Assembly: GCA_031291445.1 (NCBI GenBank)
Contig: JARLJA010000004.1
Span: forward strand, 2,754-66,753
DNA: 64,000 nt
Source of the DNA: Xanthobacteraceae bacterium
Lineage (GTDB): Bacteria; Pseudomonadota; Alphaproteobacteria; Rhizobiales; Xanthobacteraceae
Direction of reading: 5' to 3'
The position numbers and the translations under genes are program-made. The notes beneath the pieces were generated by a model, which searched no databases, was not told the DNA's origin, and worked only from the letters and a program-made list of their open reading frames with translations. Shown here piece by piece: positions 34,903-39,130 of this stretch. Each line of letters begins with the position of its first letter. The first letter of the stretch is position 1.

Positions 34903-35837
34903 CCGCCCGCATCATCATGAAGCTGCGGGTCGCGCGGGCCCGCCTGACCGCGCCCGACGTGCTGCACCTCGACCTGGTGCATCCGTTGCGCCCCGAGCTG
35001 CCGGAATGGACCGCCGGCGCCCATGTCGACCTGCGGATGCCCGACGGCAAGATCCGGCAGTACTCGCTGTGCGGCGATCCGGCCGATCGCAGCAAATACG
35101 AGATCGCCATCAAGCGCGAGCCATCCGGCCGGGGCGGATCGGTCTGGGCGCACGAGCACCTTAAGGAAGGCGCCATCGCCCACGTCTCCGCGCCCCGCAA
35201 CAACCTGCCGCTGGTGGCGGCGCAACGCACCGTGCTGGTGGCGGGCGGCATCGGCATCACGCCGTTCGTTGCCATGGCCCATGAGCTGACGCGGCGCGGC
35301 CAGGACTTCGTCCTGCACTACTGCGCGCGTTCCCGCGAGGAGGCGCCGCTCATCGCCGAACTCGAAGCGATCTGCGGATCGCGGCTGAAGTGCTGGTTCT
35401 CCCGCGGCGGGTCGCGGTTCGACCCGGCGGTGATCGGCCCCCATGATGGCGGCACCCACGTCTATGTCTGCGGGCCGCAGCGGCTCTTGGATGCTGTGCA
35501 GGGCGCGCTGGCGGACTGGCCGGAGGAGCAGATCCATGGCGAGGTGTTCCAGGCGACGCTGGACGAGAACTTCAAGGCCGAGCCGTTCGAGGCCGTGATC
35601 GCCTCCACCGGCCAGCGTCTGCTGGTGCCGGCCGACCGCTCGCTGCTCGCGGTGCTGCGCGACGCCGGCTTCATCGTCGCCTCGTCCTGCGAGCTCGGCG
35701 TCTGCGGCTCCTGCGAATGCGGCTACCGTGACGGCCTCGTGATCCACCGCGACAAGTCGCTCGCGGTCGGCAAGCGGCAGGACCGCATGCTGCCCTGCGT
35801 CTCCCGCGCCCGGGTCAGCGTCACGCTGGAGATGTGA
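34899..35837 (+). CDS. PDR/VanB-family flavin-[2Fe-2S] oxidoreductase
   Basis: GAHVD, RQYSLC, GGIGITPF, YVCGP, SCELGVCGSC. Confidence 0.92.
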   Translation: MTARIIMKLRVARARLTAPDVLHLDLVHPLRPELPEWTAGAHVDLRMPDGKIRQYSLCGDPADRSKYEIAIKREPSGRGGSVWAHEHLKEGAIAHVSAPRNNLPLVAAQRTVLVAGGIGITPFVAMAHELTRRGQDFVLHYCARSREEAPLIAELEAICGSRLKCWFSRGGSRFDPAVIGPHDGGTHVYVCGPQRLLDAVQGALADWPEEQIHGEVFQATLDENFKAEPFEAVIASTGQRLLVPADRSLLAVLRDAGFIVASSCELGVCGSCECGYRDGLVIHRDKSLAVGKRQDRMLPCVSRARVSVTLEM

Positions 35838-35977
35838 CGCGCGGCTGGTGGCGCGCTCGCACCCTGCGGCATCCACACGTCTCGTCGCGGCTCCGGTCAT
35901 GTTGGCCGAGAGCTTCGTCTTCCGCGGTTAACCGTTTCCCCCTTATGGGATTATATACTAGACAAGTAGAGCCTGTG

Positions 35978-36268
35978 CTAAGGCTGTCGTTTTGTGAGGT
36001 AATCGACCATTTCCAAGATAACCGGTCTCACATGGGGCTGCCAGACATACACTGAAAGGAATAGGCCAAAGCTGAAGGCAGACACAAAAAACACAATCGC
36101 CCCCAGCGTCCCGTAGCCAACGAGCCACGCCGCGCCAACCCCTACAAAGAACGACGCGACGAGCCCGGAGACGAGGAAACTAAGCAGCAACGCAAAGCCG
36201 AGAAGGCCGAGCCAAAACCCGGCTACAAATTTTCCGCACTTCTCAAGGATGTGCGCAATTTGGCTCAT
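35978..36268 (-). CDS. Hypothetical membrane protein (96 aa)
   Basis: Strongly hydrophobic ORF; ATG overlaps the upstream stop (ATGA). Confidence 0.55.
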   Translation of the reverse strand: MSQIAHILEKCGKFVAGFWLGLLGFALLLSFLVSGLVASFFVGVGAAWLVGYGTLGAIVFFVSAFSFGLFLSVYVWQPHVRPVILEMVDYLTKRQP

Positions 36269-36405
36269 TTCGCCTTACGCCGTTCGGGCTTCGTCTTTGC
36301 AAGCCGCTCCATCAGCTCATCCGCAGCCGAATACTTTTCGTCCGCTTCGATCTCGCGGGCCTACTCAATGAAGGTTCTGGATTGCTCGGGGCCATCAAGC
36401 CGCAC
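36265..36405 (-). pseudogene. Small charged protein interrupted by an in-frame TAG
   Basis: GTG-RLDGPEQSRTFIE*AREIEADEKYSAADELMERLAKTKPERRKAK-TGA; TAG at 36361-36363; final stop coupled to the next gene. Confidence 0.5.
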
Positions 36406-36415
36406 GTCGCTAGAC

Positions 36416-36991
36416 TTATTTTCCGCCCTTCCATTCGAACAAAGGCCCGTCGCTTGCCTTTGGAGCCGCGCCCTTGGCCTGCCTTTTTCGTCGTCTCTCG
36501 TTCTTAGCTCGCTGCTCAATCTTGAGCAGCTTCGGATCTTTGTTAGAAACCCAACGCAATTCCCCGCCTTCAACCCAATTGCACGGCACATGATAAAATG
36601 AGGCCTTTCTCGCCCTCCTGATCTTGGCGGCAATCACAGGCCACCAATGAATCAGAAGAGCGCACTTGCGCCAAAACTTCCAATCCGACCACTGCGCCTC
36701 AAAAAATATGACTATGAACCCGTGCTCGATCAGCGCTAGCCGTTCGTGTGGTCGGTGCTTCATCCTGACATCACCAGATATAACGACCTTTCCGCCATCA
36801 TCAGCGAAGCGTTTCAACCAAGGAACGTCATCCTTGGGCCTATAATCATCATCTCCTGGTTTGGGCGTGTAGTCAGCCGCCGCCTTGATTGTGAAGTTTC
36901 CGGATATCCTCTTGAATTGGTTCTCGCTGGCGAAGTTCTGCAGAACTCTCACCAGACCTATTGGCACGTTCTGGTCAAATACAACCTTCAA
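36416..36991 (-). CDS. PIN-domain putative toxin (VapC45/PIN_10-like)
   Basis: KVVFDQNVP, DDVPWL, VISGD acidic PIN residues; coupled to the DUF433 gene. Confidence 0.78.
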   Translation of the reverse strand: MKVVFDQNVPIGLVRVLQNFASENQFKRISGNFTIKAAADYTPKPGDDDYRPKDDVPWLKRFADDGGKVVISGDVRMKHRPHERLALIEHGFIVIFFEAQWSDWKFWRKCALLIHWWPVIAAKIRRARKASFYHVPCNWVEGGELRWVSNKDPKLLKIEQRAKNERRRKRQAKGAAPKASDGPLFEWKGGK

Positions 36992-37671
36992 GCAGCTATC
37001 GCTAGGCTCTCCTCGAATTTGACAGCCTCGCGAACGTGCCGGATGGGTATTTCATAAATGTCGGCGACGAACTGCGCGTTTCCTTCGACTTTTACTGCTT
37101 TCGCAATTGTGTCTGTAGGAATGTTGCTGCGCTTCAGCACAGGATGACCAAACTCGATACGGGGGTGAAGAATTACATTCGGCGCAATCTTGGGCCTCGG
37201 CCTCCACTCGACAACTTCGCCCTGTGGATCAAAAAGAACATCTTCGCGGAGAGATTTCATTACGACAGATGGAATTTCATAGTTCTTTGTCCGTAGGTCG
37301 TAGACCAGCATCAACCCGTTTCGCAGCGCTATATCCGCAACGATTTTCCGACCATCAGTCTTGAATACCGTCTTGGTTGCAAACGGATGCGGATGGCGCA
37401 ACGTTTCTCGCGCCTCCGTCATGATGCGTCGAATTTCGCGCAGCTTCACACCAGCCTCAACGAAGCGCGCAATAAAGCGTAGCTCCATGAGGTTTGCGAA
37501 ACTGACGGCAGTCTTTTCGCCAACTCGACCAAGCTGATTGACGATGACGGGGTCTTGTTTTCCCGTATGGCCCTCGACCCAGACGCGAACGGACGCCTGC
37601 GGCGCGCTGACGAGTTCGGCAGCTTCCGGAATGCTGTAAATGCCAATTTCTAGTAGGTCCGGACGCACCAT
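36988..37671 (-). CDS. HTH plus DUF433 putative antitoxin (VapB45-like)
   Basis: N-terminal YSIPEAAELV HTH; C-terminal PRIEFGHPVLKRSNIPT...IYEIPIRHVREAVKFE. Confidence 0.8.
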   Translation of the reverse strand: MVRPDLLEIGIYSIPEAAELVSAPQASVRVWVEGHTGKQDPVIVNQLGRVGEKTAVSFANLMELRFIARFVEAGVKLREIRRIMTEARETLRHPHPFATKTVFKTDGRKIVADIALRNGLMLVYDLRTKNYEIPSVVMKSLREDVLFDPQGEVVEWRPRPKIAPNVILHPRIEFGHPVLKRSNIPTDTIAKAVKVEGNAQFVADIYEIPIRHVREAVKFEESLAIAA

Positions 37672-37870
37672 ATAATCTCGCCTTTTTCGCCGCGTTCCTA
37701 CGAGTCTCGGCAAGTCAATATCTTATCAACGATACCATTGGGCGCCTTCGTTGTGCGCGAAAAGTGTATAATTCCCCATGCGGGGAAGGTTAGGAACGGG
37801 GTGATGGAGAAGCCATGGCGCGGCAGTTCGTTTCTTCCGCCCTCACATCGATTTCTGAGTCTGCGGCTTA

Positions 37871-37908
37871 CCCCCCACCCCGGCCCTCCCCCACAAGGGG
37901 GGAGGGAG
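37871..37908. repeat. REP-like palindrome (ccccaccccggccctccccc-acaa-gggggaggg family)
   Basis: GC hairpin, roughly inverted relative to the related element at 37772-37800. Confidence 0.6.
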
Positions 37909-38011
37909 TGTGCAACCTCGCTCCTCTCGGGCGGACTGAGATGTCCAATAGGCTCGCGCCCGGCGCTGCACGGCGGACAACGACTCTGTCATCCGCCGCT
38001 TCGCTCTTGTC

Positions 38012-39130
38012 TCAGCAGAAATGCGCGCCCTGGGTCTCGACATAGACCGCGTACAGCGACTGGCTCGCCGTCATGAACAGCCGGTTGCGCTTGGCGCCGC
38101 CGAAGCAGACATTGGCGCAGATTTCCGGCAGCTTGATCTGGCCGATGCGGACGCCGTCGGGCGCGAAGATGTGCACGCCGTCGTAGCCCTCCCCGACCCA
38201 GCCGGCGCCGACCCAGATGTTGCCGTCGGTGTCGACACGCAGGCCGTCGGCGAAGCCGGACCGGCCGTCGAGCGCCATGTCGATGAACGGCTTCGGATTC
38301 GACAGCTTGGTGCCGTCGAGATCGTAACTCCAGATCACGTTCTTGGCGGCGGGATAGTGGGTGATGCCGGTGTCGCAGACATAGACCTTCTTGTAGTCAT
38401 GGCTGAAGGCGATGCCGTTGGGCTTGAACGGCTCGTCGGCGACCTTGGTGACCTGGCCGGACTGCGGGTCGAGCCGATACACCGCCTCCTTCTGGTAGGG
38501 CTGCACCGAGCCGGTGTTGGCGCGCTGGCCCTCGTAATAGCCGAGCGCGCCATAACCCGGATCGGTGAACCAGATCGACTTGTCGTTGGGATGGACGATG
38601 ATGTCGTTGGGCCCGTTGAGCTGCTTGCCGCCGGCCTGTTCGGCCAGCACCGTGGTGCTGCCGTCGTGCTCGTAGCGCACCACATGGGTGCGCTGGCAGG
38701 CCAGCTGCCGGCCCTCGGTGTCGAAGGTGTTGCCGTTGGCCTCGTTGGACGGAAAATGAAACCGCTCGGAAATGTGATTGTCGTCATCGATGAAGCGGAG
38801 CTGGCGGTTGTTGGGGATGTCGCTCCAGACCAGATAGCGGCCCTGCGCGTTCCATGCCGGCCCCTCGGCCCACAGGCAGCCGGTGAACAGCCGCTGGATC
38901 GGGGTGTTGCCGACCTTGGCCTTGAAGCGCTTATCCATGACGACGATGTCGGGATCGGGATAGCGCTGCGGCTCGTGGCCGCGGCCGAAGTCGCGCCCGA
39001 ACGCCGCCGTCGGCGCCAAGCTGGCGGCGGCGAGCGCCGCAGTGGTCTGCAACAGGCGTCGCCGATCCATGCGACCGGGCGCCGCGCTGCCGCGGGCGGA
39101 CGGATCGAGAGTCTCGTGCTGGCTGGTCAT
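38012..39130 (-). CDS. SMP-30/gluconolactonase family protein with a Tat signal
   Basis: DRRRLL twin-Arg; WAEGPAW, WSDIP, NGPND, PNGIAFS, ADGLRVD. Confidence 0.9.
   Translation of the reverse strand: MTSQHETLDPSARGSAAPGRMDRRRLLQTTAALAAASLAPTAAFGRDFGRGHEPQRYPDPDIVVMDKRFKAKVGNTPIQRLFTGCLWAEGPAWNAQGRYLVWSDIPNNRQLRFIDDDNHISERFHFPSNEANGNTFDTEGRQLACQRTHVVRYEHDGSTTVLAEQAGGKQLNGPNDIIVHPNDKSIWFTDPGYGALGYYEGQRANTGSVQPYQKEAVYRLDPQSGQVTKVADEPFKPNGIAFSHDYKKVYVCDTGITHYPAAKNVIWSYDLDGTKLSNPKPFIDMALDGRSGFADGLRVDTDGNIWVGAGWVGEGYDGVHIFAPDGVRIGQIKLPEICANVCFGGAKRNRLFMTASQSLYAVYVETQGAHFC

Follow-up and report, generated by a model that had tools for sequence, protein, structure and literature searches.

Remnant of a cargo-carrying IS1595-family element with a putative toxin–antitoxin pair in the loop of a REPIN-like repeat

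The DNA analysed here (the window) is a stretch of 64,000 nucleotides on contig JARLJA010000004.1 from the draft genome of a Xanthobacteraceae bacterium (GCA_031291445.1). A 1.8-kb segment of the window was identified, by comparison with related elements, as the remnant of a cargo-carrying mobile element of the IS1595 family; it represents a known kind of element in defective form. Its insertion site is the loop of hairpin 1 of a REPIN-like (REP doublet forming hairpin) repeat, that is, in one arm of an inverted doublet of repetitive extragenic palindromes (REPs). On the evidence given below, it is very likely a relic that was deleted in place and is most probably immobile, and the only function that it would have conserved is a two-gene module. 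This module encodes a DUF433-like protein and a PIN_10 nuclease, which together are a putative toxin–antitoxin pair.

The insert and its host target

The features of the insert and of its target are listed in Table 1. The insert site is flanked by a reductase gene, with its stop at 35837 (plus strand), and by an SMP-30/gluconolactonase-like gene, with its stop at 38012 (minus strand). These two host genes are convergent, and the segment separating the reductase operon from the SMP-30-like gene is an AT-richer islet. The GC content was 0.49–0.56 over 35850–37800 and about 0.52 for 35945–37779, and 0.64–0.74 (about 0.69) in the flanks. The GC content at third codon positions (GC3) was 0.56–0.65 in the cargo genes versus 0.90–0.91 in both adjoining host genes. 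The segment 35945–37779 was present as a single copy in the source assembly, a draft of 208 contigs that is 96% complete. It is bounded at both ends by an imperfect inverted repeat, and all of its notable open reading frames (ORFs) are on the minus strand. An earlier note on this DNA had described an AT-richer segment of 1.8 kb with imperfect terminal inverted repeats; the contrast in GC and GC3 and the match of both ends to intact relatives agree with that description. The limits that it gave, 35945 and 37779, held overall, but comparison with intact relatives shifts each boundary by 2–3 nt, to an element span of about 35947–37776. It had also counted four co-oriented cargo ORFs. Their orientation was correct, but only two of them are intact genes, the other two being a broken homologue of a conserved 53-aa ORF and an orphan ORF of 96 aa.

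Table 1. Features of the insert and of its host target, in positions of the window.
Feature	Position	Strand	Remarks
Left part of host target	35859..35946		Upstream portion of multi-copy REPIN-like repeat; ends in left stem and loop TTTCCCCC-TTAT of first REP hairpin
IRR, cargo-side terminal inverted repeat	35947..35969		GGG-ATTATATACTAGACAAGTA; 22/24 positions match the 24-nt repeat of relatives; one deletion, one substitution
Orphan 96-aa ORF, read as membrane protein from hydrophobicity	35978..36268	-	In variable region between 53-aa ORF and IRR
Broken homologue of conserved 53-aa small basic ORF	36265..36415	-	Lys codon of FIEKA motif is TAG at 36361-36363; ATG lost
PIN_10 nuclease, putative toxin, 191 aa	36416..36991	-	PF18478; TTG start overlaps stop of upstream gene
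DUF433-like DNA-binding protein, putative antitoxin, 227 aa	36988..37671	-	N-terminal MerR-like winged helix, C-terminal DUF433-like domain
Remnant of IS1595 transposase gene	37698..37757	-	Last 19 codons and stop (60 nt); aligns with transposase 3′ ends of Tardiphaga, L027, L028 and L029
IRL, transposase-side terminal inverted repeat, outer 16 nt only	37762..37777		15/16 positions match relatives; inner TTGACAAGTA block gone
Right part of host target	37778..37944		Loop and right stem of hairpin 1 (ATGC-GGGGAAGG), spacer, second inverted REP hairpin at 37884-37906

The terminal repeat of the clade to which the element belongs is 24 nt long, GGGAATTATATACTTGACAAGTA. In the window, about four bases separate the remnant of this repeat at the transposase-side end (IRL) from sequence that belongs to a transposase gene's 3′ end. 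The inner CTTGACA block of the IRL has been lost, and this block is kept even in distant relatives that were found through the transposase alone. Relative to full elements, about 0.9 kb is missing. No IS1595 DDE transposase gene with a Zn ribbon (PF12760 and PF12762; NF033547) was found in the window element; the earlier note was right about the absence of the gene but had missed its 60-nt 3′ remnant. Because the IRL remnant is joined to the transposase 3′ remnant, the insert is read as an internal-deletion derivative, and since it has no transposase gene it was classed as a derivative and not as an insertion sequence (IS). The IS1595 origin that had been suggested is supported by relatives with the same ends and cargo, which encode an IS1595 transposase, and by the piece of this gene kept in the window. 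Imperfect repeats and a missing target duplication could be taken as proof of great age; this was rejected, since intact relatives also have one to three mismatches between their ends, and two of them are without a duplication.

In several intact elements, among them L027 and L062 (see below), the 24-nt repeat holds two perfect motifs, TTGACA facing inward and TATAAT facing outward, and the truncated window end is without TTGACA. With these two motifs in the repeat, intact elements could drive their own transposase and form hybrid promoters into the flanking DNA.

After removal of 35945–37779, the rejoined flanks aligned without a gap across the junction with at least 17 paralogues on other contigs of the source genome (C116, C137, C59, C182, C206, C124, C195, C86 and others), and they formed the palindrome TTCCCC-loop-GGGGAA. 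The repeat is 150–260 bp in size and has two inverted 37-nt REP units about 95 nt apart, of which the window holds 35859–35944 and 37780–37944. The consensus consists of the stem CCCTCCCCC, the loop CTTGT and the stem GGGGGAGGG, followed about 95 nt further on by the second hairpin with the inverted loop ACAAG. An intact paralogue folds into one long hairpin (−132 kcal/mol), and the repeat was therefore considered a REPIN-like inverted REP doublet. Loop-like pentanucleotides were left on both sides of the insert, with 4/5 and 3/5 matches to the loop of the paralogues. The assembly of 6.3 Mb contains only 36–61 such hairpins, with loops in the CTTGT and ACAAG orientations, so that a random landing in such a loop would be very unlikely (probability of roughly 1e-4). 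This alignment bears out both the rejoined palindrome and the insertion in a REP hairpin loop that had been predicted from the window. The target had been rightly described as a palindrome resembling a REP, but it is one arm of an inverted doublet of about 150 nt and not an isolated REP.

The empty-site comparison rests on the paralogous copies within the source genome. The right-hand gene was present in 4 of 9 species genomes of the same genus (82–84% identity). No orthologous empty site was found among these nine genomes, and neither the left-hand gene nor the repeat was adjacent to the right-hand gene. A RAYT gene (PF01797) was not found in the source draft genome, and control genomes gave matches. 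A reading of the flanks as an integron attC site, based on the GTTAGG beside the insert, was dropped because all paralogues have GTTAGG within the REP consensus.

The DUF433-like/PIN_10 pair

The 227-aa protein was taken to start at Met15 of a 241-aa ORF, where its homologues begin. It had 335 homologues at E ≤ 0.001, and almost all among the 120 matches listed were 225–232 aa long. The profile of this family matched PDB 5AF3 (residues 8–217, E 6.7e-7). A fold search with a model of the protein (mediocre, 58.1) recovered only 5AF3, which is Mycobacterium tuberculosis Rv2018, and weak MerR-family matches. DUF433 was matched at E < 0.01 by 21 of 26 homologues. The product of the second gene matched PIN_10 (PF18478) with 45.2 bits (E 9.8e-12, cut-off 26.2) and was 82–90% identical to six relatives and 72% identical to a seventh. 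Residues D6, D40, D47, D49, D55, D64, D65, D74, E83, E89 and E98 were invariant in eight homologues, and none of the invariant acidic residues is lost in the window protein. No solved structure matching the PIN_10 toxin by sequence was found. Searches of the cargo with NCBIfam, PHROG and PADLOC gave nothing informative except one PHROG of unknown function.

PIN proteins paired with COG2442/DUF433 have been predicted to be a type of toxin–antitoxin system (PMC2701414). The transcriptional and proteolytic regulation of such a PIN-COG2442 pair, vapBC10 of Synechocystis, has been studied (PMC3834315), and Rv2018–Rv2019 is listed as the VapBC45 pair (PMC3968373). As in VapBC10 and Rv2018–Rv2019, a gene for a DUF433-like DNA-binding protein lies upstream of a gene for a PIN-like nuclease, and the window partner is homologous to Rv2018 over its full length. 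The window pair differs from them in that its partner scores below the DUF433 cut-off of Pfam and its toxin belongs to the PIN_10 subfamily. The score for PIN_10 and the profile match to Rv2018 support the DUF433/PIN cargo pair reported before, and we regard the two genes as a putative toxin–antitoxin pair that is probably live.

The overlap between the two cargo genes is 4 nt. All seven copies compared have TTG at the start of the toxin gene, which ruled out the TTG as a disabling mutation. Both genes are intact. In comparison with relatives, the proportion of nonsynonymous differences (pN) was 0.05–0.11 and that of synonymous differences (pS) was saturated at 0.59–0.82, and the dN/dS ratios of the PIN_10 gene and the DUF433-like gene were 0.02–0.07 and 0.03–0.06, respectively. 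The low dN/dS together with the saturated pS indicates that both genes are under strong purifying selection. In the window and in contig L028, the cargo was under purifying selection while the transposition functions decayed. Read-through transcription from the co-oriented SMP-30-like gene may reach the pair.

The pair was also found as a stand-alone two-gene unit in varied contexts in Bradyrhizobium genomes, where similarity to the window at the DNA level is confined to these two genes. In Bradyrhizobium barranii subsp. apii (CP096255, locus L022) and Bradyrhizobium sp. Arg237L (locus L023), it lies beside DUF1156 and DUF499 genes or a large helicase gene, with integrase or resolvase genes. 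The context of these two copies looks like a defence or mobile island.

Full-length relatives and their preference for REP hairpin loops

Full-length relatives were found on a metagenome contig, in Tardiphaga sp. and in several metagenome-assembled genomes (MAGs). They have the order 24-nt inverted repeat, IS1595 transposase, DUF433-like/PIN_10 pair, 53-aa ORF and inverted repeat, and the amino-acid identity of their cargo pair to that of the window was 87–93% in three relatives and about 75% in a fourth. The 2.9-kb metagenome contig (L027) is a complete element with perfect 24-nt terminal inverted repeats. It encodes a transposase of 309 aa with PF12760 and PF12762 (NF033547 at 193.9 bits, cut-off 75), the same pair (DUF433-like protein 89% identical), the 53-aa ORF and a DUF1508 gene, and its 8-bp duplication, CCCTGGAG, extends across the loop in a REP-like hairpin. 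A 2.76-kb element with the same order is present in the complete genome of Tardiphaga sp. 813_E8_N1_3 (G062; loci L062 and L072), and the DUF433-like and PIN_10 proteins of this element were 92.5% and 90% identical to those of the window, respectively. The Zn-ribbon/DDE transposase was present in L027, in the Tardiphaga genome and in L065.

A scan of one genome per species with the 19-nt core of the terminal repeat as the query gave 26 loci of the clade. Complete copies are 2.5–3.6 kb long and contain the transposase, a two-gene cargo, the 53-aa ORF and a variable small ORF. In the complete members examined, the slot that separates the transposase from the 53-aa ORF is occupied by a two-gene module that always ends in a PIN-superfamily gene. 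This module was of three types: the DUF433-like/PIN_10 pair (L065, L069 and L072), an unknown protein of 270–288 aa without a family match followed by a PF01850 PIN protein (L066, L078 and L086), and an HTH-IrrE (M78) protein followed by a DUF4411 PIN-like protein (L063). Loci L067, L082 and L087 have an ORF pair with the sizes of the second type and similar N-termini. A locus on a Roseomonas marmotae plasmid (L093) has the same order and is annotated only as separate genes. Besides the window element, the clade includes two deletion derivatives, of 504 bp (L085) and 1.6 kb (L080). The former (L085:3570-4073) retains its two ends and part of the 53-aa ORF and is flanked by a 7/8 duplication (CAAACCAG and CAAACTAG).

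A tblastn search detected the 53-aa ORF in 16 loci, irrespective of the cargo, including L027:2336-2497, L063, L065–L067, L069, L072, L078, L080, L082, L083 and L085–L087. It is basic, has the motif DDPEQSKAFIEKA...ADEKKSAADKLM and is located at the cargo side in every element of the clade, even in the 504-bp miniature derivative; it had no match in Pfam, PADLOC or PHROG. From this distribution we assign the 53-aa ORF to the backbone of the transposon clade. The ATG of the 96-aa ORF of the window overlaps the stop of the broken 53-aa ORF, and this larger ORF is not common to related elements. It had no match in Pfam, NCBIfam, PADLOC or PHROG, and one distant match (36% identity), with no IS context, in 300 genomes of the same family.

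A perfect 8-bp duplication was present at eight complete copies and one split pair (ends in separate loci), and two more copies had a 7/8 duplication. Of the 12 complete copies, 7 lie in loops closed by a perfect stem of 7 bp or more, as do two split pairs; of the 57,242 control positions taken from the same loci, only 1.6% do so. REP-type flanks were also found at three single ends (L075, L095 and L099). The remaining sites of the clade are not REP hairpins, and several of them are AT-rich. In these relatives, the clade shows a statistical preference, not a strict specificity, for the loops of G/C-rich REP hairpins, and the suggestion that such elements target REPs is upheld in this form.

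Two elements with an intact transposase gene, those of Tardiphaga (L062/L072) and of a Bauldia MAG (L086), lie between REP halves without a direct duplication. This may stem from flipping of the loop or from a deletion that extends into the doublet's partner REP. At the Tardiphaga site, the loop sequence on one side, TTGC, is the exact reverse complement of that on the other, GCAA, and the flanks extend the inverted repeat by 20 nt.

Transporter ISs (tISs) of the IS1595 family have been described (Siguier, Gagnevin and Chandler 2009, as cited in PMC3129680). The relatives resemble these tISs in their Zn-ribbon and DDE transposase, in their 8-bp duplications, in having short terminal inverted repeats that start with GGGAATTAT, and in the placement of passenger genes between the transposase and the opposite end; the window copy differs in being without the transposase and part of one repeat. 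The ends also fit ggnnatTAT, the consensus of the ISNwi1 group. The ISs that target REPs include IS1397 and ISKpn1 (IS3), IS621, ISPpu9, ISPpu10 and ISPa11 (IS110) and ISRm22 (IS4), and the families named in that account are IS3, IS110, IS4, IS256 and IS5, with no mention of IS1595 (PMC1525189). Like the IS1595 clade, these ISs insert inside REPs; they differ in the family of the transposase, and REP loops make up only about half of the sites of the IS1595 clade. For IS1397, the insertion point is the loop of the REP. In the literature searched, we found no report of REP targeting by the IS1595 family, and no description for this family of a REP-loop preference or of a fixed slot for PIN-type two-gene modules.

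In transposition modules of the Tn3 family, type II toxin–antitoxin modules, PIN toxins included, lie beside the transposase gene, and there has been repeated acquisition of different types (Lima-Mendez et al. 2020, PMC7157771). The likeness to our element is that the pair lies beside the transposase gene and not among ordinary cargo. The IS1595 element differs in its family and in being without a resolvase or a res site, and the DUF433-like/PIN_10 type is not among the seven pairs listed for the Tn3 family (PMC7157771).

History of the element and rival explanations

Judged by comparison with its relatives, the insert descends from a full-length element, and we infer the following order of events. 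A full-length, cargo-carrying IS1595-family element would have transposed into the REP hairpin loop between the convergent host genes. Its original layout would have been a 24-nt repeat, the Zn-ribbon/DDE transposase gene, the antitoxin-like gene, the PIN_10 toxin-like gene, the 53-aa ORF, a variable small ORF and the second repeat. An internal deletion would later have removed about 0.9 kb, comprising the inner third of the transposase-side repeat and the transposase gene except its last 60 nt, and the 53-aa backbone ORF would then have gained a stop codon. From what is known of these families, the 227-aa protein is expected to bind and neutralise the PIN_10 ribonuclease and would probably repress the operon, and the weak TTG start overlapping the antitoxin stop would couple translation of the toxin and keep the toxin scarce. 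On the intact transposon, the module was probably an addiction or stabilisation device, as proposed for the toxin–antitoxin pairs of the Tn3 family. After the loss of the transposase, the module may have been kept because its loss was counter-selected or because it was useful, for example in phage defence.

The earlier note had instead proposed a toxin–antitoxin cassette mobilised in trans, that is, a still-mobile, non-autonomous mobile insertion cassette (MIC) or large MITE (miniature transposable element with inverted repeats) that arrived without a transposase and is moved by a related IS1595 enzyme. It is in keeping with this proposal that the outer 16 nt or more of the inverted repeat are kept at both ends and that the clade has other deletion derivatives, one of them (L085) with a 7/8 duplication. 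However, we consider such a cassette unlikely. A search of the source draft genome for the ends beside an IS1595 transposase found neither: no IS1595 transposase was detected by protein or Pfam search, and there were no further copies of the element ends. Two genomes of the same genus had a transposase match, but these matches were weak, the listed one (G004) being 47% identical. The segment is single-copy, its IRL is without the CTTGACA block that is kept across the wider clade, it has no target duplication, and the deletion junction, searched as two patterns, matched nothing in the JGI metagenome contigs searched. IS231–MIC231 of Bacillus cereus (as cited in PMC3129680) provides a comparison. 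MICs and MITEs resemble the window element in having IS ends around non-transposase genes, but they are multi-copy with target duplications, whereas the window element is a single copy with one truncated end, no duplication and no cognate transposase found in the draft genome. Insertion of a full-length element followed by deletion in place fits better, given the single copy, the absence of a transposase and of other ends, the lost IRL block, the missing duplication and the unmatched junction.

Several points weigh against an in-place-deleted relic with a conserved module. The assembly is a draft, in which a cognate transposase could sit in unassembled repeats, and the GC3 of the cargo is unameliorated, so that the insertion may be recent and arrival in an already deleted form is conceivable; a cassette mobilised in trans would be favoured by both. 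An 8-bp target duplication could not be demonstrated in the window in any of the boundary registers tried, in line with the earlier observation that none is visible. The best candidate needed a 2-nt gap and shifted ends and was rejected as indistinguishable from chance in a C/G palindrome. With regard to the module, the 227-aa protein of the window scored below the cut-offs of both DUF433 (16.9 versus 23.6 bits) and MerR_1 (20.6 versus 21.6), neither cargo protein matched the PADLOC defence models, the structure model of the PIN_10 protein was unusable (predicted local distance difference test score, pLDDT, 40.7), and no promoter-like site was found upstream of the pair.

The pair could also be something other than a classical toxin–antitoxin system, either an accessory part of transposition, with a nuclease and a DNA-binding partner that target or process hairpins, or an uncharacterised defence module. 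Every complete member examined has a PIN-superfamily gene (PIN_10, PIN or DUF4411) and an upstream partner in the same slot, the partners are large for antitoxins (227–381 aa), and stand-alone copies adjoin helicase, DUF499 and DUF1156 genes, all of which would suit such a role. Three unrelated types of partner and PIN protein in one slot, however, fit exchangeable selfish cargo better. The pair is under strong purifying selection where the transposase has been deleted or has decayed (the window and L028) and also outside ISs, its partner is homologous to Rv2018, and there is no PADLOC match. We therefore think it improbable that the pair serves as such an accessory or defence module. It is far less probable still that no transposon was ever inserted and that the segment is an islet gained by horizontal transfer and captured when REP copies recombined, with repeats that arose by chance or are REP-derived. 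The flanks do form an inverted repeat by themselves, being halves of a palindrome, and there is no target duplication. Yet the ends match a 24-nt repeat common to 26 loci in other genomes, the transposase remnant lies exactly where intact relatives have the gene, and the gene order is that of the full elements.

For the source genome, the relic reading means that this islet would be annotated as a dead transposon with a probably live toxin–antitoxin pair. The element itself is of a known kind, and what is worth pursuing is the clade-level preference for REP loops and the fixed slot for a PIN module. This IS1595 clade has a PIN-superfamily module always in one slot, a small conserved ORF and a frequency of landing in REP loops far above chance. 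We tentatively suggest, as an idea that may well prove wrong, that the clade is a structure-directed specialist of REP/REPIN hairpin loops in which a PIN-type module is obligatory but exchangeable, in a fixed slot beside the 53-aa protein, and that such elements seed toxin–antitoxin or defence modules at REPs that outlive the transposase. If this were true, it would offer a concrete route by which orphan toxin–antitoxin pairs enter intergenic repeats and would extend the known range of REP-targeting elements by a further transposase family. The clade is rare in the family of the window, in which its repeat was found in 6 of 401 genomes, the source genome included. It is spread across Alphaproteobacteria, having been found in Tardiphaga, Bradyrhizobium, Nitrobacter, Reyranellaceae and on the Roseomonas plasmid; in Nitrobacter, the same terminal repeat is carried by a MAG (L084).

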